The notes: generated from the sequence alone by a model not told the origin. Shown: positions 22,812-62,485, counted from the stretch's first letter. The stretch: DNA of 64,000 bases from a virus (IMGVR_UViG_3300032281_000616:96001-160000); one strand, 5' to 3'. Numbers and translations: made by a program.

Positions 22812-22828
22812 AAACACTAGAATAAAGT
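22812..22828 (+). promoter_or_regulatory. AAACACTA-type promoter upstream of the tRNA cluster
   Basis: TTAAACACTA-GAA-TAAAGT about 100 nt upstream of the first tRNA. Confidence 0.55.
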
Positions 22829-22922
22829 ATGGACCTCCTAAGCAAGGGGCATCTGATAACGCAGTTAGAAAAAGATGTTTAGGTTTTGGTATAGATCCGA
22901 AAAAAAGAATAAAAATTTAAAT

Positions 22923-22995
22923 CGCAGGTAGGTGGTCTGGTTGACCATTCCGGGTTCATATCCCGGAGAGGAGGATTCGATTTCCTCACCCGCAA
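22923..22995 (+). tRNA. tRNA-fMet (CAT), initiator type
   Basis: C1:A72 mismatch; anticodon stem CCGGG/CCCGG with loop TTCATAT; T arm GAGGA-TTCGATT-TCCTC; no encoded CCA. Confidence 0.8.
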
Positions 22996-23001
22996 CATAA
23001 T

Positions 23002-23098
23002 GGGTACATAGGCTAATGCGCGAAAATGAAATAGAGCTAAGTGTATCACAGGTTGTGACGATAAGATTAGCTAGAGGTTCAACTCCTCCGTGTGCTCA
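23002..23098 (+). ncRNA. tRNA-like RNA with a non-canonical core
   Basis: Acceptor GGGTACA/TGTGCTC-A; T arm GAGG-TTCAACT-CCTC; helix GGCTAAT/ATTAGCT replaces the D and anticodon arms. Confidence 0.5.
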
Positions 23099-23108
23099 CA
23101 ATTCAAAC

Positions 23109-23179
23109 TGGAATATCGTCTAATGGTAAGACAACGCTTTCATACGGCGAGAACGACAATTCGATTTTGTCTATTCCTA
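23109..23179 (+). tRNA. tRNA-Met/Ile2 (CAT)
   Basis: TGGAATA/TATTCCT acceptor; GTC-TAATGGTAA-GAC D arm; loop TTCATAC; T arm GACAA/TTGTC. Confidence 0.65.
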
Positions 23180-23184
23180 CATAT

Positions 23185-23257
23185 GCGTGTTAACGATGGG
23201 ATTATGATTTGCTCGTAATGCGAATCATGAAGGTTTCGATTACCTTCAGCCGCACCA
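23185..23257 (+). ncRNA. Degenerate D-armless tRNA-like element ending in CCA
   Basis: Hairpin ATGATTTGC-TCGTAAT-GCGAATCAT; T hairpin TGAAGGT-TTCGATT-ACCTTCA; 3' GCCGCACCA; poor acceptor pairing. Confidence 0.4.
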
Positions 23258-23418
23258 TGAAATACATCAAAGCTATTGACTTTATTCAGTGGATATGGAA
23301 GAATACATTCAACACAGAGAAATCAAAATCACAAATTAAAAGAGATCTGGAACAAGGTTCTGTTAAATTGAATGATAGAAAAATTAAAGTGGATGATGTG
23401 TTTGAGTTTGAAGACTAA
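23257..23418 (+). CDS. Small S4-like RNA-binding protein (53 aa)
   Basis: SKSQIKRDLEQGSVKLNDRKI resembles the S4 motif at the C-terminus of bacterial TyrRS. Confidence 0.6.
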   Translation: MKYIKAIDFIQWIWKNTFNTEKSKSQIKRDLEQGSVKLNDRKIKVDDVFEFED

Positions 23419-23419
23419 T

Positions 23420-23508
23420 GTGCGGGCGGCAACGATGGTGGTGTTGCATTGGTCTGTAAAACCAATCCCTACGGGTAAACAATGTGGATTCGAATTCCAC
23501 CCTTCACA
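23420..23508 (+). tRNA. tRNA-Tyr (GTA)
   Basis: ATTGGT-CTGTAAA-ACCAAT anticodon arm; long variable arm; GTGGA-TTCGAAT-TCCAC. Confidence 0.85.
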
Positions 23509-23590
23509 CCGATGTTGGATAGCACCCAACTGATTTGGATAACAAAAGCGTGATAAGTCCAAAGAGAACCAAAAATAAAACGCGCACAAA

Positions 23591-23662
23591 TCCCATGTAG
23601 CACAACAGCAGTGCGTTCGACTGTTAATCGAAAGGTTGTAGGGGCAGAACCTACCTTGGGAG
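23591..23662 (+). tRNA. tRNA-Asn (GTT)
   Basis: TCCCATG/CTTGGGA-G; TTCGA-CTGTTAA-TCGAA; atypical T loop GGCAGAA. Confidence 0.8.
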
Positions 23663-23749: not shown

Positions 23750-23844
23750 CTAGGTGTTGCGATAGCTTGGTAATCGGGCCGACTTGGAATCGGTTGTGGG
23801 CAGAAAGAGTCTGTCTATCGGGGGTTCGAATCCCTCCACCTAGA
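23750..23844 (+). tRNA. tRNA-Pro (TGG) with a long variable arm
   Basis: CTAGGTG/CACCTAG-A; CGAT/ATCG D stem; GCCGA-CTTGGAA-TCGGT; 25-nt variable region; GGGGG-TTCGAAT-CCCTC. Confidence 0.8.
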
Positions 23845-23845
23845 C

Positions 23846-23920
23846 GGGTGTGTAATTCAATGGTAGAATAACTCCCTTTTAAGGAGTAAGCTACAGGTTC
23901 GAGTCCTGTCACACTCACCA
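23846..23920 (+). tRNA. tRNA-Lys (TTT)
   Basis: Canonical cloverleaf; ACTCC-CTTTTAA-GGAGT; encoded CCA. Confidence 0.92.
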
Positions 23921-23925
23921 ATTTA

Positions 23926-24001
23926 TCCGAGTATAGCTTTAATGTAGAAGCCTCCGACTGTGAATCGGACTGTTCTGGTTCAAGTCCAGATGCGCGGACC
24001 A
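23926..24001 (+). tRNA. tRNA-His (GTG)
   Basis: TCCGA-CTGTGAA-TCGGA; T arm TCTGG-TTCAAGT-CCAGA; encoded CCA; T-1/A73 instead of G-1/C73. Confidence 0.8.
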
Positions 24002-24686: not shown

Positions 24687-24723
24687 TTGACTTTATAAAA
24701 CACTAAGGTATGATTATCGTATG
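24687..24723 (+). promoter_or_regulatory. Promoter combining TTGACT, AAACACTA and TATGAT, with the ATG at the predicted +1
   Basis: TTGACT-TTAT-AAAACACTA-AGG-TATGAT-TATCGT-ATG. Confidence 0.75.
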
Positions 24724-24957
24724 TCATCTGAACTGACCCAACACATCGAAGCTATGGGATTAATCTTCACTGAAATGGAGAGACGTAGAAAAGAAGACCC
24801 TGATGATTTCAAAGATCTCTTAGATCAAGCTGATGGTAATTTCGGAATAGCCTATGCCTTTTTATTTTTGTTGGTTGAGGATAATCTCAGGGATCGAATG
24901 ATAATAAAAAGACACGCGAAAAAACCACAACTATTAGAATGTATTTATGGAAATTGA
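24721..24957 (+). CDS. Hypothetical protein
   Basis: 78-aa ORF at the predicted +1 of the motif promoter. Confidence 0.7.
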   Translation: MSSELTQHIEAMGLIFTEMERRRKEDPDDFKDLLDQADGNFGIAYAFLFLLVEDNLRDRMIIKRHAKKPQLLECIYGN

Positions 24958-25248: not shown

Positions 25249-25323
25249 GCGCCAATGATGTAATTGGTAACATAATAGACTTCCACTCTATTCTTTAGGA
25301 TTCGAGTTCCTATTGGCGCACCA
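25249..25323 (+). tRNA. tRNA-Gly (TCC)
   Basis: GCGCCAA/TTGGCGC-A-CCA; ATAGA-CTTCCAC-TCTAT; TAGGA-TTCGAGT-TCCTA. Confidence 0.85.
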
Positions 25324-25325: not shown

Positions 25326-25397
25326 TCTCTCTAAGCATAGATAGCGATGCTCTGGCTTTGTAACCCAGATAGGTGAGCGCAAGTCTCACAGGGAGAT
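25326..25397 (+). tRNA. tRNA, probably Thr (TGT), atypical
   Basis: TCTCTCT/AGGGAGA; GCAT/ATGC D stem; C31:C39 mismatch gives a 9-nt loop CTTTGTAAC; T loop CGCAAGT. Confidence 0.6.
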
Positions 25398-26076: not shown

Positions 26077-26358
26077 ATGATTGACTTCATCATAACAGCG
26101 TGTATAATACTTTTATTCATTGGAGAACCTATATACGATAAAGGACATATTATGAAATTTAGAATAGTGCAGAAACATAACGGTGTGGATTATTATTACA
26201 TAATTCAACAACGATGGCTCTTATTTTGGAAGAAGCCATGGGATCACTATCTCACCTCAAATTTTCATTCTTGTAAATGTTGTGAAAAGGCTATAGATGA
26301 TTTTGAATTGAAGTTAAAAACTAATCATGTAATTTTAGAAAAAACAATTGAGGATTAG
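26077..26358 (+). CDS. Hypothetical protein (start may be internal, MKFRIVQK)
   Basis: YYYIIQQRWLLFW motif. Confidence 0.55.
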   Translation: MIDFIITACIILLFIGEPIYDKGHIMKFRIVQKHNGVDYYYIIQQRWLLFWKKPWDHYLTSNFHSCKCCEKAIDDFELKLKTNHVILEKTIED

Positions 26359-26419
26359 CATAATGGCAATGCTCCCGACTTTGACTCGGGCTATAAAGGT
26401 TCGATTCCTTTATCCTCTG
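26349..26419 (+). tRNA. tRNA-Gln (TTG)
   Basis: CCCGA-CTTTGAC-TCGGG; AAAGG-TTCGATT-CCTTT; G73; no CCA. Confidence 0.88.
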
Positions 26420-26446
26420 CATTAAACACTAGAATATAATACTGAC

Positions 26447-26632
26447 ATGTGGTATCCACTTAACATACATAAAAATGAAGAAGTGAATTGTGGGGGAGAA
26501 ATTCTATTTTGGGATTACTCCTGCTACGAACCCGATTGTGCTTGTGGGTATGCTGATTATTATTGGAGATGTGAAGAGTGTGGAGAAATCTTTGATTGGG
26601 AAGATATGGATAAATTTGAAAAAGAAGATTGA
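26447..26632 (+). CDS. Small Cys-rich (Zn-ribbon-like) protein
   Basis: Preceded by AAACACTA(26424)-GAA-TATAAT-N6-ATG; CACG...CEECG. Confidence 0.7.
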   Translation: MWYPLNIHKNEEVNCGGEILFWDYSCYEPDCACGYADYYWRCEECGEIFDWEDMDKFEKED

Positions 26633-28414: not shown

Positions 28415-30352
28415 TTAAAGGTTAGCGGCTTGAAAATGCATAAAGTCTATATTCCTAGCTTTACCTAAGCTAGTCCAACCCTCTGCTTCGACAATCTTCC
28501 AAAATGGTTCGTATTCAGGTCTAGCTAAAAATGCTTTATCTTTACCCCATTTCAATTGATTTCTATCTGGATCAATATCCACAGCAGCACCCCAGGAGTT
28601 TGATACAACCATACCATCCACAATAAAATTATGGGTATCTTCGACTTCGATATCAAAAACGTCCACAAGTCCTTTTTCGAGATATTTCACATCTTTGACA
28701 CTTTTGTAGATAAAATCTGGAAATAATTCCTCATATCCCATACAGTGAGATGTTCCCTTATTATGTTTAGAATCTTTCACCCTATCGAAATACATTATGT
28801 CCTCAACACATGTAAATATATTATTAGTATCGACCGAAGTAAACATCCACCCGTCTCGCCTATTACACTTAACTCCACATATTTCAGTCTCCCCACCGTT
28901 CCTCTTATCCAATTTCGAATTTCTGAATCCATGGAGAGATAGCAAAAGTCGAAGATTTAGCATTAAATTATACGAGGCACATTTGAAAGAATGTTTAACC
29001 GCCCTACTCGATTTTATTATACACCCATCCGTGTATAAATAACCTCTAATAAATGATCGTTGCTGATCGATAGTTGATGACCAAACTTCGGTGGGAATAT
29101 CTTTATCGAAAGATTTTTTATTATATGGTAAAAACCTTTCCCATATATCTCTTTTGTTTATAATGAACTGTTTTTCATTCTTTTTAATGTTCTCAGAACC
29201 AAAATAATTATCAAATAATTTTTCCGCGTGTTTTCTGATTCTATCACTTTTTGGAATCTGTATAGACATGTATGATGGCGATCCTTTTCGATGATGAATA
29301 CACCCATCACCTATAAACATGCCTAGAATTTCATACCAAGAATCCCAGTTAATATCTCCATCAACTATTGATTTTTTAAGGAAAACTATTTTATCCCCCT
29401 TAATTATATCTTTAGCTTCCACCATCTCTGTCCAATATTTGGCTCTTATTTGACCGTTTTTGTTTTTGTGTTGTATATATTCTGTCGGTTCTAATGTCTT
29501 CTTTTTCAAAACTAAAATTTTATGTTCCGGCGAACAGTCAATATCTCCACCACAAACCACGACTTTTACTAGCGGTTTTTTCCCATTCTCGAAGAAATTT
29601 TTAACCTTTTTTGTGACCAAATTTCCAGATTCGAATGAATAAACATAATCACCGATGGATATATTTTCGATAGGAACAATACCTTTTGGTGTCCACACCG
29701 GAGAACCTTTCGGTAAACAATGCTTACTCCATGAAGATCCACCGCGCATTTTTCTCACATTCAACACACCACCGAATCGATTAAGTCTTAGTTCTTTTAT
29801 TGCATCAATACCATAGTGATCTAAAGTATTTTTGAATATTCTTTGTAGAGAATCATGAACCTTTTCATGACAAGTGATTTTAGAAACCTTAGAATCTAAA
29901 TCCCAAGCTAAAAGCATTTCATATGGTAATTGTAAAGTTGTTTGGTTTGTCCCGACAGCACCATAAAACTTCACCATACTATTATAATCTTGCTTAGGCC
30001 AATCATTATAATGTTTTTTTACATCTACAGATTGAGATACATCAGGTTTCTTAACATGTAGGCTATCTTTTTTAAGCAATTGTTCATAAGCTGATTGAGT
30101 CATGTTACCCCAAAGACCATCAATATTTCCAATGTTTATATTAGATCTCACAGCAGCTACTTGAATTACACCAGTAACTAATTTTTCACCATTCCAAGTA
30201 GTTGGAAAATTGTAATATTTGAAAGCAGCTTCTTTACTTTTTTTACCAAAATCACCATCAATAGTTTCGGTGTAGAAACCAGAGTCTTTTAATATCTTTT
30301 GTGCTAATTTTTCTTTCATCTGAATTCTGGTTGTTCTGTTTTCTCTACCCAA
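28415..30352 (-). CDS. Endolysin (peptidoglycan-binding-like N-terminus plus M15-family Zn peptidase) containing an intein
   Basis: IDGDFG/IDGLWG..T PG-binding-like repeats; R.MRGGSSWSKH|SWGAAVDID (H-x6-D after splicing); FW...EAEGW.SLG...DFMHFQ. Confidence 0.88.
   Translation of the reverse strand: MGRENRTTRIQMKEKLAQKILKDSGFYTETIDGDFGKKSKEAAFKYYNFPTTWNGEKLVTGVIQVAAVRSNINIGNIDGLWGNMTQSAYEQLLKKDSLHVKKPDVSQSVDVKKHYNDWPKQDYNSMVKFYGAVGTNQTTLQLPYEMLLAWDLDSKVSKITCHEKVHDSLQRIFKNTLDHYGIDAIKELRLNRFGGVLNVRKMRGGSSWSKHCLPKGSPVWTPKGIVPIENISIGDYVYSFESGNLVTKKVKNFFENGKKPLVKVVVCGGDIDCSPEHKILVLKKKTLEPTEYIQHKNKNGQIRAKYWTEMVEAKDIIKGDKIVFLKKSIVDGDINWDSWYEILGMFIGDGCIHHRKGSPSYMSIQIPKSDRIRKHAEKLFDNYFGSENIKKNEKQFIINKRDIWERFLPYNKKSFDKDIPTEVWSSTIDQQRSFIRGYLYTDGCIIKSSRAVKHSFKCASYNLMLNLRLLLSLHGFRNSKLDKRNGGETEICGVKCNRRDGWMFTSVDTNNIFTCVEDIMYFDRVKDSKHNKGTSHCMGYEELFPDFIYKSVKDVKYLEKGLVDVFDIEVEDTHNFIVDGMVVSNSWGAAVDIDPDRNQLKWGKDKAFLARPEYEPFWKIVEAEGWTSLGKARNIDFMHFQAANL
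28598..29719 (-). mobile_element. LAGLIDADG intein (374 aa)
   Basis: Starts CLPKGSPVWTPKG, ends VFDIEVEDTHNFIVDGMVVSN, +1 Ser; LAGLIDADG helices LGMFIGDG and FIRGYLYTDG. Confidence 0.92.
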
Positions 30353-34088: not shown

Positions 34089-34883
34089 TTGACACATCTC
34101 AAAAATATAAATAACTATATGACAAAATTTCAAGAATTTTATGAAAAGTTTTCTAGGGGAGAATTATCACCAATAAATAAAAGAAGAAAATTATTAATCG
34201 AATCTCAGTATGTATATCCATCATCTGGAGATAAAGCCATTATGGATCTATACGCTTTATATGCTTTGTGGTGGGAACTTGGGGGTGGTAAAACAGCATA
34301 CGATCAAGCCGAAACTAATATAAGACCACATAAAGTTCGGGAGAGAATCAATAGATATTTTGAGGAAGCTCTGGCAGTAATTTCTAATGTTCTTCTGGAC
34401 GAAACCAAAGACGCAATTGCAGATGAAGCAGAAAACATATTCGATGAATATTTGATACCATCTACTGAAGTTGTTAAATGGTTCAAGAGTAATGCACTTC
34501 TTCCGAAATTAGCTAAAGCTTATAATGATGGATCTGGAGATGTATGGTTTAATGTATTTGATTATGGAGAAACCATACATATTTTATCTGCACCATTTTG
34601 GGAAGAATATGCTGATTTGTATGGGGGTAAGAAATGGAGTGTTATAACCCAAGTCACCAAGGAGTTAGATAATGCGATTAGAAGGGATAATACCCTAGCG
34701 TTAATGCATACCTTCGACAAATTCATGGATCTCGAACACAATACAGGTTCTCTTTATTCTAAATTGAAAAGAATGAAAGTGTCTAAGGAAACTCTGGATT
34801 TAAGAGCGGGATTCAGATCTCCTAAAGATTTCACACCTTATGTTAGTGATCGAGTAAAAAAACTAATAGGGTTAATGAGATGA
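34089..34883 (+). CDS. Hypothetical protein
   Basis: Long ORF downstream of a TTGACT...AAAAACTA-GGA-TATATT promoter-like site; start uncertain. Confidence 0.7.
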   Translation: MTHLKNINNYMTKFQEFYEKFSRGELSPINKRRKLLIESQYVYPSSGDKAIMDLYALYALWWELGGGKTAYDQAETNIRPHKVRERINRYFEEALAVISNVLLDETKDAIADEAENIFDEYLIPSTEVVKWFKSNALLPKLAKAYNDGSGDVWFNVFDYGETIHILSAPFWEEYADLYGGKKWSVITQVTKELDNAIRRDNTLALMHTFDKFMDLEHNTGSLYSKLKRMKVSKETLDLRAGFRSPKDFTPYVSDRVKKLIGLMR

Positions 34884-36367
34884 TTGGAAGGAATCATTTG
34901 TTTAGCCTTCTTGAGAACATCCTGCTCTGAGATTTCTCTACCACTTAATAACATCTCAGCCACCCAATCTTGTAATTTGGGTAAATACATACCGATCTGT
35001 TTGGGGTTTGTTTTGAATTGTGGAAACCATTGCATCATTTTATTACCATTAGCATACTGAGCTATTTGTTTTTTCAGAGCATCAGCACCTCCCGGAACTG
35101 TGTTTAGTTTAGCTTCTGCTCTCTCAATCTTATCCATAAACTCTTGTTTATCAAATAGACCGGGACCACGAGAAGCTTCATCACAATATGCCACAGCCTT
35201 AACAGTCTCCCATGAAGGATCATGAATCAATTTTCTGAGAGTCTTTATATTGAGTGTATCTAGATTATGAACCATCATATGTTTAGCTACAGCATCAAGA
35301 ATGTTCTTTTTATCATTCGGTCCTAGTTTAGCGAATCTCATTCTTTTGAAGATTCCCTCAACAATAGGAACACCAGCAGCTTCATGACCATAATATGTAG
35401 AATGTCCATTCTTTTCACCTCTAGTTGTAGCTTTTCCAAAGTCGTGGAAAAGAACAGCTAAGTTAATCACAGGATCACTATAAGGTGAAACTTTTAAGCA
35501 TTCGTGAATGTGACCAAGAACTTTACTCTCCCCTTCTGGATGATATTTCGGATTATGCATCATTCCATCCATCGCATGAAACTCTGGAAGAATATCTTGT
35601 AATATTCCAGCTTCAGTAAGCTTACTTAAAAAGTTTGATAGAGTTCTTCCTGATTTGGCTGCTTTAAACATTTCTTGAGAAATACTCTCCATAGAAATCA
35701 GAGAAGAATCTTGTAACAAGTGCTTCAATTCTTTAGCAGCTTGTAGAGTCTCTGGCTCAATATCAAAGTCCATCTTAGCTGCGAATCTGAAGACACGAAG
35801 CAAACGGGTAGCATCCTCCTTAAACCTCTCTCTAGGATTACCAACTGCACGAATTAATTTATTCTGAAGATCCTGTAAACCACCCTGATAATCTACAATC
35901 CTACCACGATGATCAAGACCAAAACTATTGATAGTAATATCCCTACGTTTGGTATCCGTTTCAAAACTATCAACCTCTACAGAAACATTACTCTGTCTTC
36001 CCATTTCAGTTTGAGAATCTTCCCTAAATTTAGCTAAGTCATAAGCATAGTTGTTATATAGGATAGTATAAACTGGTTGAGAATCATTCTTTGATATATT
36101 ACGCAACTCAAAATGTTGAGACAAATCCTCGAAGGGGATATTAGTTGCCATATCAACATCATCGATCTCGTTACCCATAATAAGGTCACGAGGAACACCA
36201 CCAACAATATAAATCTCTCCAGAAGGAAACAGATCAACAATCTTGTTCATCAGATTCAAGGCTACTCGGAGTTCTTCAGAAGATGAGATAGCCTTATTCC
36301 ATTTCTCTGAAAAGTCATCTAGATTATTATTGACTGATTCGAAGAAGAATTTTTTGAATGGGATCAT
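34838..36367 (-). CDS. cca: tRNA nucleotidyltransferase (class II CCA-adding/poly(A)-type) with HD domain
   Basis: YIVGGVPRDLIMG...DDVDMAT, DTKRRDITIN, RFKEDATRLLRVFRFA, LFHDFGK. Confidence 0.88.
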   Translation of the reverse strand: MIPFKKFFFESVNNNLDDFSEKWNKAISSSEELRVALNLMNKIVDLFPSGEIYIVGGVPRDLIMGNEIDDVDMATNIPFEDLSQHFELRNISKNDSQPVYTILYNNYAYDLAKFREDSQTEMGRQSNVSVEVDSFETDTKRRDITINSFGLDHRGRIVDYQGGLQDLQNKLIRAVGNPRERFKEDATRLLRVFRFAAKMDFDIEPETLQAAKELKHLLQDSSLISMESISQEMFKAAKSGRTLSNFLSKLTEAGILQDILPEFHAMDGMMHNPKYHPEGESKVLGHIHECLKVSPYSDPVINLAVLFHDFGKATTRGEKNGHSTYYGHEAAGVPIVEGIFKRMRFAKLGPNDKKNILDAVAKHMMVHNLDTLNIKTLRKLIHDPSWETVKAVAYCDEASRGPGLFDKQEFMDKIERAEAKLNTVPGGADALKKQIAQYANGNKMMQWFPQFKTNPKQIGMYLPKLQDWVAEMLLSGREISEQDVLKKAKQMIPSNHLINPISFFTRSLT

Positions 36368-36372: not shown

Positions 36373-37209
36373 TTATTTAATAGATTTTGGAATAGCAATA
36401 TCATTACCAAATCCTTGTAATTTATTCATATCTACTTTACATGGAATAATACCTCTATATTTTTCCTTATATTCCTTAAGAGGTTTTGCGTAATTTGCTT
36501 TATACCACCATACTAATTTTCCTTGAACTATATCAGAATGTTTTAGTTCTAAATTTTCTACGATCCAGCCTTCTTCCATAGATTCTCTAATAGCAGCTTC
36601 CATAGGATCTTCACCCGGATCAACCTTACCTCCCGGTAAACCATATTTTCCGTTACCATCATCATCAGATTTTCTATCCGATGGTCTGGTAGTCGCGGCT
36701 ATCTTCCCATCGGGAAACTGATAAACCACGAATACAGCAAATGGTGATTTAGTGAATTCTTCGTCCTCGTCATCCGAACTATACATATATGGATTTTCAT
36801 CCTCGTCCATCATCCAATTTCGGGAAGTATACATACTAGGCAATTCAGGATACAATTCCTTCAAATACTTTAACGTTTTTCTTTGCCCAGTTGACATATC
36901 ATTATTAATCGTTTCACAATGTATTTGATTTGTAGGTTCTACAACAATCCTAGCCCAACCTTTTTGTAGTAGAATTTTACTCATATTATCTTCATCATAC
37001 TCAGATAATATTTTACCATGCCTAACTAATCGCCTAGCTGCATTCTCATGTTCTGCCCATTTCCATACAGTTTCAAGATTTCCATGCCTATCCATCCAAA
37101 AACCATACGGTGGAGATTTTGGGATTTTTGATAAAGATTTTATACTTGGTGTATTAACTTCATAATTTTGTTCTTGTAAGAGTGTAAAATATTTTTTGAA
37201 GGTGATCAT
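36373..37209 (-). CDS. Protein with a C-terminal Nudix hydrolase domain
   Basis: Nudix box GLPGGKVDPGEDPMEAAIRESMEEG. Confidence 0.85.
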   Translation of the reverse strand: MITFKKYFTLLQEQNYEVNTPSIKSLSKIPKSPPYGFWMDRHGNLETVWKWAEHENAARRLVRHGKILSEYDEDNMSKILLQKGWARIVVEPTNQIHCETINNDMSTGQRKTLKYLKELYPELPSMYTSRNWMMDEDENPYMYSSDDEDEEFTKSPFAVFVVYQFPDGKIAATTRPSDRKSDDDGNGKYGLPGGKVDPGEDPMEAAIRESMEEGWIVENLELKHSDIVQGKLVWWYKANYAKPLKEYKEKYRGIIPCKVDMNKLQGFGNDIAIPKSIK

Positions 37210-38953: not shown

Positions 38954-38990
38954 TTGACTTAAGCAAAATCGATGGTATAATATACTCATG
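38954..38990 (+). promoter_or_regulatory. Sigma70-type promoter with the ATG at the predicted +1
   Basis: TTGACT-N16-TATAAT-N6-ATG. Confidence 0.75.
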
Positions 38991-39638
38991 CCTTATTTAA
39001 ATCACAACGTTCCAACAATCACCTGCCTGATTCGCAATCAATATCTTTTTAATCATGAAAGCGGCCATGGTGAATACTCGCTGTGTGATGTGCATAGTGT
39101 TGCCTCTATGGAAAAAAGAGTTCCCCTATTCGAAGCATTTTTAACAAATGGTGTGAACTGGACTAGAAGACCAATTACCGCTTTTTGTTGGAAAGAATGT
39201 GAACCTGTCAACTTAGAGGAAGCAATGTATTGGGATTGTTTCAGCCCATATATAGATGTAAACGTGAGAGCAAGAATGAAAAACCTAAGAGCGAAACTTA
39301 TCACCCCAAGTAATGAGAAAAAATGGGGAGAATATATGATGACTCTCGATTGGGGGTGGGAAAATAAAGCAATGATTGATACGAATTTTAGCGAAACTCC
39401 AGAACATAAGTGTGGACACTTATTTAAAATGGATAATGGTAATTTTTATATCTACCCAAATAATAGAATTATATGGCATGATGATGCATGGGTCGATACT
39501 CCACTCGATAAAAATCCCAATTACAAAATTGATCTAACCGTATATAGCGTAGAAAACAAACGACATCAATTCACAGATGATAGCTATATGACCGAATTTA
39601 AAAACACCCCACCTTCAAAAAACACTGAATTGGAATAA
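38988..39638 (+). CDS. Hypothetical protein
   Basis: YLNHNVP, WDCFS, HKCGH, YPNNRI motifs. Confidence 0.8.
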   Translation: MPYLNHNVPTITCLIRNQYLFNHESGHGEYSLCDVHSVASMEKRVPLFEAFLTNGVNWTRRPITAFCWKECEPVNLEEAMYWDCFSPYIDVNVRARMKNLRAKLITPSNEKKWGEYMMTLDWGWENKAMIDTNFSETPEHKCGHLFKMDNGNFYIYPNNRIIWHDDAWVDTPLDKNPNYKIDLTVYSVENKRHQFTDDSYMTEFKNTPPSKNTELE

Positions 39639-39723: not shown

Positions 39724-39813
39724 CTATACAGGAAAATTGAGAAAATTTATTAAAAAATATATTTTTCTATACAGGAAAATTGAGAAAATTTATTAAAAAA
39801 TATATTTTTCTAT
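39724..39813. repeat. 43-bp tandem repeat (2 copies plus 4 nt) in a very AT-rich tract
   Basis: CTATACAGGAAAATTGAGAAAATTTATTAAAAAATATATTTTT at 39724-39766 and 39767-39809. Confidence 0.92.
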
Positions 39814-39866
39814 GGCCCCCTCCCCATCCATAAAACACTAGCATACCTATCCAATTCCTAACGCAA

Positions 39867-39898
39867 GCATACTCTAGTGTTTCATCACTAGAGTATGC
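39867..39898. repeat. 13-bp perfect inverted repeat built on the AAACACTA motif
   Basis: GCATACTCTAGTG-TTTCAT-CACTAGAGTATGC. Confidence 0.9.
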
Positions 39899-39939
39899 AG
39901 GGGCATCGATCATTACAACCGATGCCCCTTCCTAGTGTT

Positions 39940-40161
39940 TCAACTCCAGAGGAGTTCGTTGAGTTCGAACTGGTCAACCTTGCGCACGTTGCAGGCAGCG
40001 GCGGACCTCCTTTGTTGCGGGCTCCAAGGCTTAGGGCCGAAGGCATCATGGAAAGCCTCCTCTTCACTGTCACCATGCCCTAGTAGGCACTGGCGTTTGA
40101 GATACGCGGAGCGTTTGGTGATGACATAGGCGGCGGTATCAGGCGTTAATGTGGTGGACAT
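39940..40161 (-). CDS. Small GC-rich hypothetical protein
   Basis: Motif promoter with N6-ATG; TGA stop overlaps the next motif. Confidence 0.75.
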   Translation of the reverse strand: MSTTLTPDTAAYVITKRSAYLKRQCLLGHGDSEEEAFHDAFGPKPWSPQQRRSAAACNVRKVDQFELNELLWS

Positions 40162-40584
40162 GATTGAATTCTATTCTAGTGTTTCAAACGGAAAGGGGTG
40201 GCCTCGCGGGGAATCGAACCCTCATAATCTGTCCGGGGGTAGCTATTCCCCATCTCCACCTCACGCTTGCAATCGCTGGCGGTTGATTATGTTTTTCCTA
40301 GCCCTCTTCAAGGGCTACCCGCACCGAGCGGAAAAGGCATTTAAGCTACTTACATCCTATCTTAGTGTTTCATCCGCTGGGTGGCTTCGTCACTCTCCTT
40401 GGCAATGACTAGCAAGTGGAGTAAAAAGGAACGGGTGAACTATCGCCACCCAGCGGCATCATCATTCTGCTCTAGTGTTTCATCCTCTGAAGCACTTTCG
40501 AAAGCTCTTAGAATCGCTTCCAAGCTCTCGAAAGTGCCGCCCCTTGTCCGGGTTAGGGACAAGGGGCGGGAAGGGCTTGGAGGG

Positions 40585-41085
40585 TTATTCCGCTGCGGTT
40601 GCGGGGGCGGTTGCAGTCGCCACCATTGCGGCAATCGCATCTTCAGACAATCCAAGGGCCGCGCCATACTTACGAATTTGAGCAACCAACCCATCGATGG
40701 TCGGCGTCTTGCTAACGGTTTCAGAATAGTCGCGAACCTTAATCGCTTCCCATGCCTCCCCGATCAAATCCTTGGTTTCGAAAACAGGGTTGCCGTCCTC
40801 ATCCAAGGCTTGCACCTCAACAGCTTCCCCATCGACTTCGACCGATTCCATCACTGGCACGGTTTTGAAGCGGCGATCCGTTGCGACCTTGTAAAGCACC
40901 TCAAAGCACTCTTTTTCAGACATAGGGATGGGAGGGGCCTTGGCAACGGCAGCGGGGCGGGTGAAGCCCTTGCGGAGTTCAGTGGCCTCATTTTTGAGGT
41001 TTTCTGTGATTCCGAACGTGAATTGAACGGGCTTCTTAGCAGTTGCGGTTGGGGCGGCGATAGGGGTAGTAGTGGTGGTTTGCAT
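40585..41085 (-). CDS. Ala/Thr-rich hypothetical protein
   Basis: 166 aa, GC-rich codons, motif promoter at 41104. Confidence 0.75.
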   Translation of the reverse strand: MQTTTTTPIAAPTATAKKPVQFTFGITENLKNEATELRKGFTRPAAVAKAPPIPMSEKECFEVLYKVATDRRFKTVPVMESVEVDGEAVEVQALDEDGNPVFETKDLIGEAWEAIKVRDYSETVSKTPTIDGLVAQIRKYGAALGLSEDAIAAMVATATAPATAAE

Positions 41086-41193
41086 AACGTCTATATTCTA
41101 TCTTAGTGTTTTATTCGACTTGCTTCTTTCGAGAGCTTCCCGCATCCTTTCTGGTAGGATGAACCATTTCGTGCTTTCATTCTGTCCTAGTGT

Positions 41194-45585: not shown

Positions 45586-47115
45586 TTATTCTTCCCGATT
45601 GCGGCGTGATGGAGCATCTGTAAGATGAATAAGACTTTCCATCGCACGAGTCGCTGCAACATAACGAAGATGTTTTTCTTGCTGTTGCATCCATGGAAGA
45701 ACTGCGTATTTGGATGGAGAAAATTGCGCATCACCCAACCAGTAAACAGTTTTCCATTCAAGACCCTTAGCCTTATGAATAGAACTGAAGGTCACGATAT
45801 TCGGAAGATTCCCATCCTTAGAATCAGTGAACATATCAGCGATAAGTTTCTCCAGAGAATAAAGATCATCCTTTCCGAGAGATTGGACACGTTCAATCAG
45901 AATGATCATGGTATCCAACTTATCTTCCAATTGTTGCATCTTAGCATAAGAAGCTTTCTCGAACTCCTTATTGAAGAATTCATTAAGTTTGATGATGAAG
46001 TCGGAGAGAGTCTTAACCTTTTTCCACTTATTCACCAGTTTGATAAGATCCTTACCAATATCTTTTCCTTCGATACGGCAACCGATACCTTGACGAATAA
46101 GAGCGAAAGCAAGGGCAACATTAGGAGCATTGTTTCGGCAAAGAATCCCAACATTACGATCAAGCTTGATATTCATAGCTTGATCGACAAACTCTTGATA
46201 CTTCATAGAAGTGACAGAACCCTCACAGTTTCCTTCATAGGCCATGATATCAGGAAAGAACTCTTGAGCAGTCTTAATGATATTCTTTCCACAGCGGTAG
46301 CAGATGGAAAGTGGAAGCTCTTCACATTCAAAACGCTCACGAATGAGATTCATTGAATCATTCTCAGCACCAGTGAATCCCATAATTGCTTGTCCTTCAT
46401 CACCAATAAAGATACAACGACCATCTGGTTTGACAAGTTTAGCAGCAAGAAGTTTACGACAAACATTTGTATCTTGAGCTTCATCAACGACAACCCAATC
46501 ATATTGTTGACCCTTGATATCATAGATCAGGGGAAGATACTGCATATCATCAAAATCAATTGAACGAAAATCAAGATTGGAGTCCCTAAGAACTTGCTTG
46601 GCAATTTCAATAACTTCACCAAGATCAGCATCAAAGTCTGTATCGATATCATGATGAGTGATGATTTCCATCCATGCTTGAGTATCATCGATAGAAGTTT
46701 GACCCTTAACACCAAACGCATTTTGTTTAGCGAAACCTACAAGTTTAGTAATAAAGTTGCGAGTATATTGAAGATCTTGACGTTGGCAATACTTTTCAGT
46801 GATCCAATAAACTTTACCATTCTTTGGAACATTATGCCAACCTTTAGCTTTATAGAGCATACCCTTACCCGTTGCATGAAATGTTCCAGAAATAGCATTA
46901 GGAACGCCCATACGAGAAAGTTTCTCTTTAAGTTGCCATGCAGCTTTAGCACCAAAAGCCAACATGATAACATCACCTTTCATGAATTGTGCGCAATGCG
47001 TCACAAGAAAAGTTTTACCGGAACCAGCACGGGCTGGAATGATAAGGTTTCTCTTATTAGGGTTAGGATTACGAACCCAAGATTCGACATCAAGTTGTTG
47101 TTGAGATAGTTGCAT
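45586..47115 (-). CDS. UvrD/Rep-type superfamily 1 helicase
   Basis: ARAGSGKT, VVVDEAQD, FIGD..QAIMGFTGA, YRC, SIHKAKGLEW, YVAATRA. Confidence 0.9.
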   Translation of the reverse strand: MQLSQQQLDVESWVRNPNPNKRNLIIPARAGSGKTFLVTHCAQFMKGDVIMLAFGAKAAWQLKEKLSRMGVPNAISGTFHATGKGMLYKAKGWHNVPKNGKVYWITEKYCQRQDLQYTRNFITKLVGFAKQNAFGVKGQTSIDDTQAWMEIITHHDIDTDFDADLGEVIEIAKQVLRDSNLDFRSIDFDDMQYLPLIYDIKGQQYDWVVVDEAQDTNVCRKLLAAKLVKPDGRCIFIGDEGQAIMGFTGAENDSMNLIRERFECEELPLSICYRCGKNIIKTAQEFFPDIMAYEGNCEGSVTSMKYQEFVDQAMNIKLDRNVGILCRNNAPNVALAFALIRQGIGCRIEGKDIGKDLIKLVNKWKKVKTLSDFIIKLNEFFNKEFEKASYAKMQQLEDKLDTMIILIERVQSLGKDDLYSLEKLIADMFTDSKDGNLPNIVTFSSIHKAKGLEWKTVYWLGDAQFSPSKYAVLPWMQQQEKHLRYVAATRAMESLIHLTDAPSRRNREE

Positions 47116-53235: not shown

Positions 53236-53310
53236 TGAGAGAGACAGGATTCGAACCTGCATCGATCCATTACGGTACTACGGAGTAGAATTCCGTTCCG
53301 ATACACTCCC
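53236..53310 (-). tRNA. Pseudo-tRNA lacking the D arm (TCT in the loop)
   Basis: GGGAGTG/CTCTCTC; ACGGA-ATTCTAC-TCCGT; long variable region; GCAGG-TTCGAAT-CCTGT. Confidence 0.45.
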
Positions 53311-53751: not shown

Positions 53752-53827
53752 TGGTCCTCCTAACCAGATTCGAACTGGTAACTAACGGTTTATGAAACCG
53801 CTACTCTGACCGTTGAGTTATAGGAGG
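53752..53827 (-). tRNA. tRNA-Ile2 (CAT), putative lysidine substrate
   Basis: CCTCCTA/TAGGAGG-A-CCA; GCGGT-TTCATAA-ACCGT; lies directly downstream of tilS. Confidence 0.82.
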
Positions 53828-53832: not shown

Positions 53833-54444
53833 TTACAAATAAAATTTCTTTAATACGACTTTCTCCAACCCTCTTCGTTCTTCGATTTTAGGAAGGATTT
53901 CATTTCTAATCCAGTTTCTTTCATATTTACTATCTGAATTGGTTTCATCAACTACTACATATCCAGATAATCCTCTTTTATCAACCCAATCCTCTAAATT
54001 AGATTTACTGTTTTTAATAAAAGGTCGCAGCAAAGTAAAATTATCAAACTCACTAATTTGTTGAATCGGTTTATATTCTGGACAACCTTTTAGACAATTC
54101 ATAATATACTGTTCAACACAATCACCTAGATGATGACAGACTATAATTGATTCACCAATCTCATCGAAGAAACTTAATCTCTCTTGTCTCAAATTATCTT
54201 CAATGTTCTTAGTGTATTTTACGCGACATTCACCAATTGTCAAATGAATTTTGTAGTCATCACAAAACTTTCGACAAACATCAACCATCTTTAGATTCTG
54301 TTCTCTTTGATTATGATTGAAGTGGATAGCTTTGAAATTATAACCTAATGTTAAAAGAAGATGAGAGCATGCTAAACTATCAACTCCACCAGAGATAGCA
54401 ACCGAAAATTGCTCAGGAATGATTTTTCTATTGATATGAATCAT
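53833..54444 (-). CDS. tilS: tRNA(Ile)-lysidine synthetase
   Basis: VAISGGVDS PP-loop, HFNH, HHLGD..E, LLRPF, VDETN....YERNWIR; true start MIHINRK (the ORF-track extension lies in the tRNA duplicate). Confidence 0.88.
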   Translation of the reverse strand: MIHINRKIIPEQFSVAISGGVDSLACSHLLLTLGYNFKAIHFNHNQREQNLKMVDVCRKFCDDYKIHLTIGECRVKYTKNIEDNLRQERLSFFDEIGESIIVCHHLGDCVEQYIMNCLKGCPEYKPIQQISEFDNFTLLRPFIKNSKSNLEDWVDKRGLSGYVVVDETNSDSKYERNWIRNEILPKIEERRGLEKVVLKKFYL

Positions 54445-54459
54445 TATTGTATGAGATAG

Positions 54460-55193
54460 CCGCACCCGGACTCGAAAATACACTTTTAGACTAAATAGTA
54501 TTATGAAGATGCTTAATTGTGATAGGTGTAATGAAGAATTCGAAGTTTCATATGACCAATGGAAGAATCGGAGGAGTAAAAAGAAAATCCATAATAGGAA
54601 TAATTATTGTTCGCTGGAATGCAGATTATTGGGACAAGGAAAAAGCCCAAGAATAGAAGTTTCGTGTGAAAGTTGTGGTTGTTTTTTTATGAAACATTAT
54701 AGCGAGGTTACGAGAACCCCTAAAAATTTTTGTTCTAGATCTTGCTCTGCTACATATAACAACACTCACAAAACAAAGGGTAATCGCAGAAGTAAGTTAG
54801 AAAAATGGTTAGAAGAACAATTAACTGTGTTATATCTAGAACTAGAAATTCTATATTCGAACAAAACCACCATTAATTCTGAGCTTGATATTTATATACC
54901 ATCCCTAAAATTAGCCTTTGAACTTAATGGAATATTCCATTATGAACCAATATATGGTGAAGATAAGCTAAATCAAATCCAAAACAATGATAATAGAAAA
55001 TTTCAGGCTTGTTTAGAGAAAGGTATCGAATTATGTATTATCGATACTTCTCAACACAAATACGTTAAGCCTTCTACTTCACAAAAATATCTTGATATTA
55101 TCACACATTTAGTTAACTCTAAATTAGAGTCATCCAAAACAGACTACGTGGAAGTAGTGTGATTTCCTGTTTCTGACCGCACCCGGACTCGAA
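54460..55193. repeat. 17-bp direct repeat of the tRNA-Leu 3' end flanking an endonuclease gene
   Basis: CCGCACCCGGACTCGAA at 54460-54476 and 55177-55193. Confidence 0.88.
54503..55162 (+). mobile_element. Zn-finger plus PD-(D/E)xK-like putative homing endonuclease
   Basis: CxxC...YCSLEC, CxxC...FCSRSC, ELDIYIPSLKLAFELNGIFHY; own late promoter at 54492. Confidence 0.78.
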
Positions 55194-55292
55194 CCGGGAA
55201 GCCTTTCGGCGGCAGATTTTCGACAAGGTATAATATATTTCACTTATACCCTATTAGAAAGTCTGCGATGTTTACCTTTTCATCATACGGCC
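55174..55292 (-). tRNA. tRNA-Leu (TAA) with a 38-nt insertion in the anticodon
   Basis: GGCCGTA/TGCGGTC-A; GCAGA-CTT[38 nt]AAAA-TCTGC; variable arm GCCGAAAGGC; CCCGG-TTCGAGT-CCGGG. Confidence 0.8.
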
Positions 55293-55304
55293 ATTGATTT
55301 TTAG

Positions 55305-59581: not shown

Positions 59582-59602
59582 GAGTGTATCTTACTTTAGT
59601 GT

Positions 59603-60292
59603 TTACACAGTCAAAGCAAACCCAGTCTTATCAATCTTAGCATGACGCTTACCTTTCAAGGCAACGATGCAACCCTTCGGATCAAGAAACCTAAGATCAT
59701 GATCATCACCACTTACAATGCGCTTACCATTAAATTTCTTAGGTTGTTCACCATTAAAAACGATAGCAACATTTCCCTTACTTCCAAGAATAGCTTGACA
59801 CTTGAGGTCATTATCTTCCTTTCTAGAAAAGGTTAGATGATAATTTTTAGGAAGCTTCTTCTCCAAGAATTCTACCATACGATCAAAATCTGGAGTGTAA
59901 TCATAAAATTGAACATCATCAAACATCTCCATAAGAGTCATGCCGTTATGCTTAATCTTATGCCAAGGTAGATCACTCGTGAGATTCAATCTAAAACAAG
60001 GAGTAAGACCCTTCTTCAAAGACTTCTTGATAGCTGAAGAAATTTCCTTAATAAGTTGTTCCATGAACCCATTCTTATTAGTGAAGAAGTATTTTGTCTT
60101 ATTGATACGGGCTAATTGAACAGATGAATAAGCACCCATTCCAGCCGTATTCAAACACGCAGCACGACAACCAGCACTGGAATTCTTACAGACATTAAAA
60201 CCTGATAATTTTTCAGGAGCAAGATGGATACCAAATGTGAGATATCCAAGATCAAGAGACTTTTTTAATTTTGTGTTTGTGGTGAGAAGCAT
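59603..60292 (-). CDS. GP88-family protein (Cys-cluster, radical-SAM-like)
   Basis: VCKNSSAGCRAACL, FRLNLTSD, QFYDYT, YHLTFS, GDDHDLRFLD. Confidence 0.75.
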   Translation of the reverse strand: MLLTTNTKLKKSLDLGYLTFGIHLAPEKLSGFNVCKNSSAGCRAACLNTAGMGAYSSVQLARINKTKYFFTNKNGFMEQLIKEISSAIKKSLKKGLTPCFRLNLTSDLPWHKIKHNGMTLMEMFDDVQFYDYTPDFDRMVEFLEKKLPKNYHLTFSRKEDNDLKCQAILGSKGNVAIVFNGEQPKKFNGKRIVSGDDHDLRFLDPKGCIVALKGKRHAKIDKTGFALTV

Positions 60293-60313
60293 GTCTAAAT
60301 TATACCTTAGTGT

Positions 60314-60532
60314 TTAACCAAATCTTTTCTTAAAATATGTGTATTGTCTTTTTGTATCTAAAATAATTTTAATGTTTATTCTAGGCATACGTCCAAAATT
60401 ATCTTCTTCGATATAATACTTGTAACCTTTCCGACCACAATAATACATTATACATGCAAACAGGTGTGGTTTATTCATCACACTATACATACAAATCACA
60501 GGATCAGGTGGAATATAAAATTTGGATTTCAT
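60314..60532 (-). CDS. Hypothetical protein
   Basis: Stop inside the motif at 60308. Confidence 0.6.
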   Translation of the reverse strand: MKSKFYIPPDPVICMYSVMNKPHLFACIMYYCGRKGYKYYIEEDNFGRMPRINIKIILDTKRQYTYFKKRFG

Positions 60533-60978
60533 GTAAAACTAACGGTTTGTTTGAAACAGTCTGGTTTAGGAATTCTTTTGTATTGATAGTTTTCATCCAT
60601 CTTATACCAAATCTCCCCATCTTCGGGATACTCGTCTCCCCAACAAATACCATCAATACAATTAAGATAGTGTTTCTCAATCAGAAGATATGTATAGTAA
60701 CATTCACAGATACCATAACAATCATTTTGATCCTCCACACATTTGATCAATAGATCTAAGTCGGTGAATGAACCACGATAAGCTTTACCGAAATATGTAT
60801 CAGTTGGATCTGGTTTATTTTCAATCCACCAACGTTTACCAAACTCCATCTTTTCATCTTGAGTCATACCATTGATCAGATTTGTATACTCCTTTTCTTT
60901 CTCTCTACGAGCTTCCCATGCCTTAATATGAGAGTCTGAGAAGGCGATGAGATTGTAAATGTATTTTGGTGATTCCAT
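60529..60978 (-). CDS. Hypothetical protein
   Basis: 149 aa downstream of the motif at 61028. Confidence 0.72.
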   Translation of the reverse strand: MESPKYIYNLIAFSDSHIKAWEARREKEKEYTNLINGMTQDEKMEFGKRWWIENKPDPTDTYFGKAYRGSFTDLDLLIKCVEDQNDCYGICECYYTYLLIEKHYLNCIDGICWGDEYPEDGEIWYKMDENYQYKRIPKPDCFKQTVSFT

Positions 60979-61046
60979 AAGTTTGTCAGATTAGTTAATT
61001 TATTAAATCGATGAAGTTATTATATTCTAGTGTTTAATCATTTATG

Positions 61047-61427
61047 TTACACATATTTTTCAATAGCTTCTTTTAGACGAATTAAATCTCCTTTATCACA
61101 GTCTGGTGATTCAATCCATTGTATGATACCGCTTATGGCTTCATTACTAGTTCCACCAAATAAAAAAGATTCGATTGCATCAAGTCTATCCTGATACATT
61201 TTATCCAAGTCTGCTGTTTTGTTTACGATGCTTTCAAAGACTCTATCGTTTTCTTTGAAGTAATCACAAATTGAATCGTATTCATCATCCCTCAATAATC
61301 CGCTTTTGTAAAAGATTTCAGCTACCTTATATTTGTCTACGTATTCTTCCATATCATCAGAAAGATTGCATGCTTCCACCATGTCATATATAGACCCTAC
61401 AACATAACTCATTCTATCTTCATCCAT
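61047..61427 (-). CDS. Acidic hypothetical protein
   Basis: 126 aa, packed with its neighbours. Confidence 0.7.
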   Translation of the reverse strand: MDEDRMSYVVGSIYDMVEACNLSDDMEEYVDKYKVAEIFYKSGLLRDDEYDSICDYFKENDRVFESIVNKTADLDKMYQDRLDAIESFLFGGTSNEAISGIIQWIESPDCDKGDLIRLKEAIEKYV

Positions 61428-61428
61428 A

Positions 61429-61746
61429 TTAGTTTTCTTTCAAAAATGCGCTTAAAATATCAACTTGAAACATACCAAAGAACATACCTTCCGCTTGCTT
61501 AGAAAAAGCGTAAAAATCAGCAGACTTAAATGCTACATCAGCGGGGTATACAAAAGCATACAGACGACCCTCATGAGATACGTTAATGAAATCTGGTTCG
61601 TATTCACAAATCTTAGCGTCCTTAATTTGTTTATATAGCTTCTCACAACTCTCCTTAGAAGATGGTTGTTGACTAGCTAATATAAATCCCGGACGATCCG
61701 AATACAGACTCTTAAGGTCTTCGATTGGTAGTTCTTTGTATGTCAT
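61429..61746 (-). CDS. Hypothetical protein
   Basis: 105 aa, packed with its neighbours. Confidence 0.7.
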   Translation of the reverse strand: MTYKELPIEDLKSLYSDRPGFILASQQPSSKESCEKLYKQIKDAKICEYEPDFINVSHEGRLYAFVYPADVAFKSADFYAFSKQAEGMFFGMFQVDILSAFLKEN

Positions 61747-61927
61747 TTTTAATAAAATTCAAATCCTTTTTACTATACCATCCAATCCAACTTTCATCAA
61801 ATTCTACAATATATTTTCTAATTTTAGAATCCCAACCACTTACAACACCCGTTTTATTGAATGTTAACATTTTGTTGTTTTTTATAGAGACTATAGTGTT
61901 TGTATATTTACTCATACCCTTATCCAA
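61712..61927 (-). CDS. Small SH3-like hypothetical protein
   Basis: GVVSGW....YIVEFD..WIGWY...DL pattern. Confidence 0.5.
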   Translation of the reverse strand: MDKGMSKYTNTIVSIKNNKMLTFNKTGVVSGWDSKIRKYIVEFDESWIGWYSKKDLNFIKNDIQRTTNRRP

Positions 61928-62457
61928 TAGGTTTCGCCACCCGCAGAAATATCAAAGTAATCTGACTGAAGTTCTTGAGCAGCAGACTCCCAATCAATTT
62001 TCATATGATTGAATGGCCATTGACCTGATTGGAATTCTTTAGGAAATTCACATACATCATTGGCTAATTGTTCTGCATATTCTGTAAAGTATGATTCGTG
62101 GATCAACCCTTCTCCATAAGACCAATCAGGTGAATCCTCACCTTGAGAGATTACTTCAGTGAGTAGATCAAGTTCATCCTTATCAAAGGACTGATTGAAT
62201 TGATCTAGAGCTTCTTGTGCTTCTTCGACAACTTCATGAAGTTCATTAAGTCTACGTCTAATAAACGCAACCGAATCATCATCCTCATCCTTACTGTCTG
62301 GATCAGTATCATTTTCTCGAAGAAAATCATCAAGATCTCCCTTAGCTTCTTCCAGTGCTTCCACTAAAGAATTATACTCGTCTTGTAATTCTTCATGGCG
62401 AGTAATGATGTCGCGGGAATCGATGATATCGTCACCCCAATTGAAATCTGTTTTCAT
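61912..62457 (-). CDS. Very acidic protein, ArdA-like antirestriction candidate
   Basis: About 30% D/E; FTEYAEQL...IDWESAAQELQSDY; motif promoter with N6-ATG. Confidence 0.55.
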   Translation of the reverse strand: MKTDFNWGDDIIDSRDIITRHEELQDEYNSLVEALEEAKGDLDDFLRENDTDPDSKDEDDDSVAFIRRRLNELHEVVEEAQEALDQFNQSFDKDELDLLTEVISQGEDSPDWSYGEGLIHESYFTEYAEQLANDVCEFPKEFQSGQWPFNHMKIDWESAAQELQSDYFDISAGGETYWIRV

Positions 62458-62485
62458 AGTGTTATTTTATTCTAGTGTTTTATAA

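Follow-up and report, generated by a model that had tools for sequence, protein, structure and literature searches.

Introduction

Bacteriophage T4 expresses its genes from early promoters recognized by sigma70, middle promoters that depend on MotA and AsiA, and late promoters of the sequence TATAAATA that are read by gp55, gp33 and gp45. Here we analyse a 64,000-nucleotide stretch of viral DNA (the window, to which all positions refer unless the genome is named) in which promoters of three classes appear to be joined to the gene starts themselves, so that the predicted transcripts would begin on the A of the initiation codon and carry no leader. The window spans bases 96,001–160,000 of a single 202,205-bp virus record (IMGVR_UViG_3300032281_000616) with direct terminal repeats and a GC content of 33.8%. 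Its genes include those of a portal of the T4 type (Pfam Portal_T4, E 4e-72) and of the major capsid protein Gp23 (Pfam, E 2e-84), the best isolate matches of the latter being cyanophages at about 33% identity, and a blastn comparison of the structural region with GenBank phages returned a single 66-nt match. Judged by these genes, the record comes from a distant, uncultured T4-like phage, and the part of the window considered in most detail (22,812–62,482) is its early and middle gene block.

Leaderless expression in a lytic phage has a precedent in the Thermus thermophilus phage phiYS40, which is reported to have leaderless middle and late transcripts, with a rise in initiation factor 2 (IF2) and a fall in IF3, and for which the idea that a phage tilts the host apparatus toward leaderless translation has been published (PMC3594737). 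The present phage resembles phiYS40 in being lytic with transcripts mostly devoid of leaders, a property that is predicted here from the sequence, and differs from it in that all three temporal classes are affected and in being T4-like and low in GC. The host phylum of phiYS40 is itself rich in leaderless genes (PMC12340547). A similar layout is known from bacteria. In group C of the GeneMarkS-2 classification the −10 box lies 6–8 nt before the start, and in leaderless-rich bacteria 25–50% of operons are leaderless and the other genes keep a ribosome-binding site (PMC6028130), while for Deinococcus-Thermus a '-10 region adjacent to ORFs' (open reading frames) has been described (PMC12340547). 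The phage shares with the leaderless genes of Actinobacteria and Deinococcus-Thermus a Pribnow-type box 6–8 nt before the start and a dispensable −35 element (PMC6028130, PMC12340547). By contrast, the remaining genes of those bacterial genomes use Shine-Dalgarno (SD) sequences, whereas the phage has no SD and carries an extra lineage-specific box of 11 bp. Our literature search, which covered T4-like phages and cyanophages, found no papers describing leaderless expression in T4-like phages.

A first-pass annotation of this DNA had proposed a translation takeover, in which leaderless messages and a private tRNA toolkit would keep phage synthesis going while a small early protein disables SD-led initiation of the host. 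This idea is a variant of the proposal made for phiYS40, and we found it partly supported, in that its premises hold while the takeover itself has no sequence evidence of its own. The reading that we prefer, with a confidence slightly better than even, is that the genome is built for leaderless, SD-free expression, that the tRNA kit forms a separate module, and that an SD blocker is neither needed nor visible.

Three promoter classes at a fixed distance from the initiation codon

The early-class promoter has the consensus, by base frequencies, ATnAAACACTA (−26 to −16), three nucleotides, TAnAAT (−12 to −7), six nucleotides and ATG. Its core AACACTA occurs 95 times in the genome, nearly always on the minus strand and between 118.8 and 193 kb of the genome. 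Genome-wide, and counting only ATG starts as in all promoter-to-start counts reported here, 43 genes have an ATG that opens an ORF exactly 15 nt after AACACTA, with 11 further genes whose ATG lies 1–5 nt beyond this offset; 29 exact and 6 near cases fall within 22,800–62,500 of the window. Allowing up to one mismatch, AAACACTAG is found 54 times in the window versus 16.5 ± 3.9 times in shuffled sequences. Position −1 is C or T in all 43 genes of the exact class, versus 37% at internal ATGs, and is followed by the A at +1, which fits the pyrimidine-purine rule for start-site choice. Given that the −10 box stands at its usual 7-nt distance, the predicted transcription start falls on the A of the ATG. 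Neither GTG nor TTG occupies the start position among the listed early-class sites.

No −35-like element is conserved at early-class sites, and in the gene array that they serve canonical two-hexamer promoter matches stay at shuffle level (91 versus 89.7). This array (39767–62482, minus strand) holds 54 mostly small genes, 33 of which have an early-class promoter of their own with the ATG at +1 to +5, and the early box often overlaps the stop codon of the upstream gene. Intrinsic terminators are not in excess in the array (11 versus 8.2 ± 2.9 expected), so the transcripts of successive promoters should nest, with each gene standing first on one of them. The class is also found on the plus strand of the block. 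One such promoter (24698–24957 with its gene) is joined to a TTGACT −35 box and followed by a 78-aa gene starting at +1 (24721), and another, at 26424 behind tRNA-Gln, is followed by a 61-aa gene starting at +1 (26447; 26349–26632 for the whole unit). A third (AAACACTA-gaa-TAAAGT, 22812–22834, plus strand) precedes the tRNA cluster and has no gene start at +1.

In 48 genes spread over the whole genome the ATG comes exactly 5 nt after the late-class box TAAATA, and in 25 more it comes 1–4 nt farther on; position −1 is a pyrimidine in 43 of the 48. As read from these spacings, TAAATA-N5-ATG is the T4 late promoter geometry with +1 on the A. The third, host-type class, whose canonical form is TTGACT-N17-TATAAT-N6-8-ATG, comprises 49 TTGAC(T/A)-N16-18-TAnnnT sites, 12 of which are followed by an ATG-initiated ORF at 6–8 nt and almost none by one at any other distance. 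TANNNT before gene starts peaks at offset 6. One example of the class is a canonical TTGACT-N16-TATAAT promoter placed 6 nt before the ATG (38988) of a 216-aa gene (38954–39638, plus strand). The host polymerase probably transcribes the genes behind such sigma70-type promoters unaided and before all others. The leaderless gene geometry noted in the first-pass annotation thus holds and extends beyond the flagged block, with all three promoter classes having a predicted +1 on the A of the ATG.

Absence of Shine-Dalgarno sequences and comparison with phage isolates

SD-like 4-mers are not enriched before gene starts, remaining at a background of 1–2% at every offset as they do at internal ATGs, and only 6.7% of starts have one. 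This also applies to genes without a promoter at their start. Of these 161 genes, 97 begin within 10 nt of the upstream stop codon. The 15 nt ahead of their starts are rich in A (43%) and poor in G, and A occupies +4 in 70% of them.

For comparison, the same gene-call-free statistic was run on three phage isolates. In T4, the TAAATA-to-ATG distance peaks at 26–28 nt rather than 5 nt, and 55% of starts have SD-like 4-mers. The promoter repertoire is nevertheless T4-like, with three classes, a late box of the same sequence type as that of T4, and a second class in which a phage-specific upstream box replaces the −35 element, although this box is at −26 to −16 here and the MotA box of T4 is at −30. 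Prochlorococcus phage MED4-213 has no TAAATA-to-ATG peak. The SAR11 (Pelagibacter) myophage HTVC008M shows TAAATA-N5-ATG at about 13 genes in its first 100 kb, like the present phage, but 36% of its starts have an SD-like 4-mer, and leaders with SD sequences of the AGGAG type precede its capsid, sheath, tube, portal and clamp genes. Because HTVC008M mixes both, leaderless geometry and SD use can coexist in a single infection, and relative to it the clade described here is the extreme case of leaderless geometry. The best matches of the capsid protein of this phage, from cyanophages at about 33% identity, did not include the major capsid protein of HTVC008M.

Conservation of the layout and divergence of the early box among relatives

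The capsid protein has 238 relatives in IMG/VR at 64–95% identity. The clade was counted over 80 related loci (about 1 Mb, GC 32–46%), in which TAAATA-N5-ATG occurs 343 times versus at most 60 times at any other offset. Three further genomes were assembled from sequence pieces, and host-type promoters peak at offset 6 in three related genomes too. The early box keeps its offset of 15 across lineages while its sequence varies: it is AACACTA in this genome (40 copies) and in G001 (34 copies), AAAACTA in G004 (75 copies), and AAAACCG within ATTAAAACCGA in G002 (52 copies), the last being also the box of locus L083 of G003. A box that is near-invariant within a genome and different between lineages suggests a phage-encoded reader. 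No member of the MotA or AsiA families was found in any Pfam screen of the ORF set.

If the preferred reading is true, a large and widespread T4-like clade, with at least 238 capsid relatives in IMG/VR, expresses nearly its whole genome without ribosome-binding leaders, each gene having its own promoter in one of three temporal classes. Such a clade would provide a natural test bed for the competition between leaderless and normal initiation, for the purpose of a phage initiator tRNA and for the co-evolution of a promoter box with its reader. Gene callers that expect SD sites will misplace starts in such genomes.

An initiator-like tRNA among elongator tRNAs

ARAGORN and Rfam identified 13 tRNA genes in the window including an initiator-like one, so that the earlier count of about 12 others stands, two of the 12 (25326 and 53236) being weak. 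The initiator-like tRNA(CAT) (22923–22996, plus strand) has C1·A72 and A73, no encoded CCA, and CCGGG and CCCGG flanking the loop, which close the anticodon stem with a run of three G:C pairs (G29–31:C39–41). The initiator identity claimed for it agrees with these features and departs from the bacterial type elsewhere, since the gene has U11:A24 instead of A11:U24. Its anticodon loop is UUCAUAU and not CUCAUAA, and it scores poorly with the Rfam general tRNA model. The accompanying claim that leaderless messages are favoured by fMet-tRNA is backed by a review of work in E. coli, according to which extra fMet-tRNA strongly enhances leaderless translation and enhances canonical translation hardly at all (PMC9031893); the argument from loss of the anti-SD sequence fares worse, as it rests on the MazF model, which was not reproduced by other laboratories (PMC9031893).

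The remaining genes of the plus-strand cluster are a second tRNA(CAT) with a U1·U72 mismatch and no encoded CCA (23109–23180), tRNA-Tyr(GTA) (23420–23510), an Asn-like tRNA in which GTT is read as the anticodon (23591–23662), a 96-nt tRNA called Pro(TGG) by ARAGORN (23750–23845), tRNA-Lys(TTT) (23846–23920), tRNA-His(GTG) (23927–24001), tRNA-Gly(TCC) (25249–25323), a weak tRNA-like match (25326–25397) and tRNA-Gln(TTG) (26349–26420). On the minus strand are a weak tRNA-like gene of 33 bits (53236–53310), a tRNA(CAT) whose acceptor stem is paired throughout and whose gene encodes CCA (53752–53827), placed 5 nt downstream of the TilS-type gene and probably, by this context, tRNA-Ile2, and a tRNA-Leu(TAA) whose anticodon loop holds a 38-nt insert (55173–55293). 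The tRNA at 23750–23845 has a long variable arm, and its only Rfam match is a weak one to the tRNA-Sec model.

Codon use of the phage favours AAA (70%), CAA (80%) and CCA (48%), and TTA is its top leucine codon. The anticodons UUU, UUG, UGG, UCC and UAA read the favoured A-ending codons. AUA makes up 31% of isoleucine codons (24 per 1000 codons), which is matched by the anticodon CAU of the tRNA beside the TilS-type gene.

tRNA-processing enzymes as a probable supply and repair kit

A probable class II tRNA nucleotidyltransferase of the CCA-adding or repair type with an HD domain is encoded at 34838–36367 (minus strand) behind a late-class promoter. The CCA enzyme of the first-pass annotation is suggested by a PolyA_pol head domain (E 5e-24) and by CCA models being the best NCBIfam matches, with PcnB models lower, although the 165 bits reached are below the equivalog cut-off of 290. 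At least four tRNA genes of the window have no encoded CCA, which would give this enzyme a job. The TilS assignment is upheld for one part of the protein: the product of 53833–54483 (minus strand, 216 aa) is a TilS N-terminal (PP-loop) domain protein that passes the TIGR02432 lysidine_TilS_N model (122.8 bits versus a cut-off of 93.6; Pfam ATP_bind_3, E 1e-34), whereas the C-terminal tRNA-binding domains are missing and the full-length model NF007942 is matched at 84 bits versus a cut-off of 606. Short TilS forms of the N-domain only are common in viral protein clusters.

The small ORF that had been called S4-like (23218–23418, plus strand), ending 2 nt before tRNA-Tyr, falls below the Pfam S4 threshold (16.5 versus 22.8 bits, E 0.0069), and its weak best NCBIfam match is the C-terminal part of TyrRS (E 6e-4), so that an S4 fold is suggestive only. 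A copy 90% identical to it is found in the same place in the related genome G001 (193567–193806).

Past the window end, the genome encodes a Thg1-like tRNA-His guanylyltransferase family protein (genome 160,442–161,239, minus strand) behind an early-class promoter and an RNA ligase (genome 182,179–183,573, minus strand), and the same 42-kb stretch beyond the window has matches to RlaP, to AAA_33, a kinase-like domain, and to His_Phos_1. Phosphoesterases are encoded outside the window as well. Phage tRNAs have been described as a counter-defence (PMC10264068), and a tRNA cluster with a CCA enzyme, an RNA ligase, kinase and phosphatase domains and a Thg1-like enzyme resembles phage tRNA-repair kits. 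The elongator tRNAs, the TilS-type protein and the CCA enzyme, as far as their sequences tell, point to the supply and repair of tRNAs and not to a role in initiation. In T4, tRNA repair by Pnkp and Rnl1 acts against PrrC.

Host leads

A scan of GTDB genomes with the capsid protein found nothing, while a scan with the promoter pattern placed 8 of 27 matches on two contigs (JAYVIK010000225.1 and JAYVIK010000086.1; loci L162, L166, L171 and L168) of a metagenome-assembled genome (MAG) labelled Flavobacterium sp. Both contigs are phage DNA with the same early box and are syntenic with the early region of the phage (genome 152–180 kb) at 65–75% identity. A 185-kb sample of the MAG resembles the phage in GC content (33.3% against 33.8%), in the low share of starts that have an SD-like 4-mer (3.5%) and in the abundance of A ahead of the starts, and shows no promoter-at-start peak. 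The Bacteroidota −7 box TAnnTTTG has neither enrichment nor a positional peak in the phage (253 versus 276 ± 17 expected), and the phage tRNAs share only 17–18-nt matches with those of the MAG.

We regard the Flavobacterium MAG as a weak host lead, given that binning may just follow GC content. The promoter type, TTGACT/TATAAT without TAnnTTTG, argues against a Flavobacterium host. The SD-free A-rich starts, the GC content and the contigs binned with the MAG nonetheless hint at a host that may do without SD altogether. A host from the Bacteroidota would offer no SD-led initiation for the phage to block, in which case leaderlessness would be a property of the phage and not mimicry.

Weighing the explanations

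In the preferred reading, each gene would be 5'-terminal on a transcript of its own and be read by 70S ribosomes with fMet-tRNA, and genes without a promoter would be translated by coupling, 97 of the 161 lying within 10 nt of an upstream stop codon. The early box would be read by a phage-encoded factor. Elongator tRNAs would supply the favoured A-ending codons, the TilS-type protein together with tRNA-Ile2 would supply AUA decoding, and the CCA enzyme would finish those tRNAs whose genes lack CCA and, with the Thg1-like enzyme and the RNA ligase, could repair damaged tRNAs. Within the kit, initiation would concern the initiator-like tRNA alone, which, as an early product, would tilt ribosomes toward leaderless messages and may give phage messages an edge. 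Given that genes behind host-type promoters are leaderless as well, unmodified host ribosomes would already translate such messages if these genes are read first.

Several observations weigh against this picture. The region upstream of the major capsid gene is the main exception to the promoter-at-start rule, with a conserved hairpin (GAGGTC...GACCT, 8598–8666) and an A-rich TATAGAAAGAA leader. The hairpin has the same place in loci L001–L076 and keeps its pairing through compensatory changes in relatives, with a conserved TGAA...TATAGAAAGAA and a short A/T-rich stretch downstream of it. As to the initiator tRNA, a mismatched or weak 1:72 pair is found in one or more CAT tRNAs of each of the four genomes, but the full initiator signature with three G:C pairs occurs in this genome only, the CAT tRNAs of the relatives having C·A, U·U or U:A at 1:72 and weaker anticodon stems. 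Moreover, codon compensation is a weaker reason for the elongator tRNAs if the GC content of the host equals that of the phage. As an observation apart from these, ARAGORN reports a tRNA with anticodon CTA, a possible amber suppressor, in G001 and G002 and none in this genome at the default threshold.

That an early phage protein disables SD-led or 30S-dependent initiation of the host, leaving leaderless messages to continue with the phage initiator tRNA, seems to us improbable. It would account for the lack of SD at all gene starts, coupled internal genes included, which exceeds what is seen in leaderless-rich bacteria (PMC6028130), and for an initiator-like tRNA behind an early promoter, and it gains from the strong enhancement of leaderless translation by extra fMet-tRNA (PMC9031893) and from phiYS40, where leaderless transcripts are reported to go with shifted IF2 and IF3 levels (PMC3594737). 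Dozens of early proteins match no known family and could include the agent. However, screens of about 290 ORFs with Pfam, PHROGs and NCBIfam yielded no homologue of a known ribosome- or IF-targeting protein (MazF/PemK, colicin E3-type ribosomal RNases, bS21, IF1 and IF3 included), and the small early protein proposed as a blocker is thus left without a candidate. Nor are the small array proteins, described as acidic in the first-pass annotation, set apart by this trait: an isoelectric point below 5.5 is found for 23 of 45 array proteins of up to 150 aa, the same share as the 47% of the whole proteome. The leaderless genes behind host-type promoters imply ribosomes that are probably competent before any phage protein is made, HTVC008M combines genes of leaderless geometry with strong SD genes in one infection, and ordinary explanations exist for the elongator tRNAs, the TilS-type protein and the CCA enzyme. 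The 'stress ribosome' model of MazF action that underlies the anti-SD argument of the first-pass annotation was not reproduced (PMC9031893), and in an SD-free host an SD-specific block would have no target.

The converse possibility, that the host expresses most of its genes leaderless in the manner of Actinobacteria and Deinococcus-Thermus and the phage copies it, appears unlikely, if a little less so. In GeneMarkS-2 group C bacteria (PMC6028130) and in Deinococcus-Thermus (PMC12340547) the −10 box has exactly this place, 6–8 nt ahead of the start, and the layout is clade-wide. Such bacteria, however, keep SD sequences on leadered and internal genes whereas the phage has none, the geometry of the late class, which depends on a TAAATA promoter of phage type, is dictated by the phage and not by its host, and the only host lead shows no promoter-at-start peak; the one sampled candidate host genome is SD-free and not leaderless, which does not bear out the leaderless host offered as an alternative in the first-pass annotation. 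We also considered that the boxes act on RNA, as processing sites cut just before each ATG or as re-initiation signals, which the fixed distance between box and ATG, the frequent overlap of the box with the upstream stop codon and the long read-through RNAs expected from the lack of terminators would allow. This is very improbable because the conserved core holds a textbook −10 hexamer (−12 to −7) with Y at −1 and A at +1, because canonical −35/−10 promoters and TAAATA obey the same spacing rule, and because one box precedes the tRNA cluster, where no ORF starts. A bolder extension of the preferred reading would make initiation in the clade orthogonal to that of the host, with every message leaderless or SD-free, its own initiator tRNA and a putative factor shifting ribosomes to 70S-type initiation and starving the leadered messages of the host. 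We hold this to be as doubtful as the takeover; candidates for the factor would be early proteins of unknown family or, if it is injected, an ArfA-like protein of the head module.

The latter is a very basic protein of 206 aa (7060–7680, plus strand). Its gene follows a late-class promoter and is flanked by those of the prohead protease and the scaffold. The match to Pfam ArfA (alternative ribosome-rescue factor A) reaches 30.3 bits versus a cut-off of 25.5 over FAPxTKVExPKKGKGSYxRK, and at least 20 of the 80 related loci retain the KGKGSYxRK core in their homologous gene; a phmmer search against the PDB gave no match. Judged from the sequence, the match may reflect either chance similarity in low-complexity sequence or a module that binds ribosomes.

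Other genes of the early and middle block

Within the array, a UvrD-type helicase is encoded at 45586–47115 (minus strand). Outside it, a Nudix-domain protein (36373–37209, minus strand) adjoins the CCA enzyme. An ORF of 645 aa (28415–30352, minus strand) combines an intein splicing domain with a LAGLIDADG domain, as identified by Pfam. RimK-like matches, to an R2K ATP-grasp protein and to a Zn-protease, were dropped, being weak and 27 kb apart. An island of 47–55% GC (39800–41650) lies inside the array, and its small genes each have an early box with the ATG 0–5 nt past +1. The 166-aa island protein at 40585–41085 has metagenomic relatives only; one carries the label DsrC/TusE from its source, but Pfam finds nothing in the protein.

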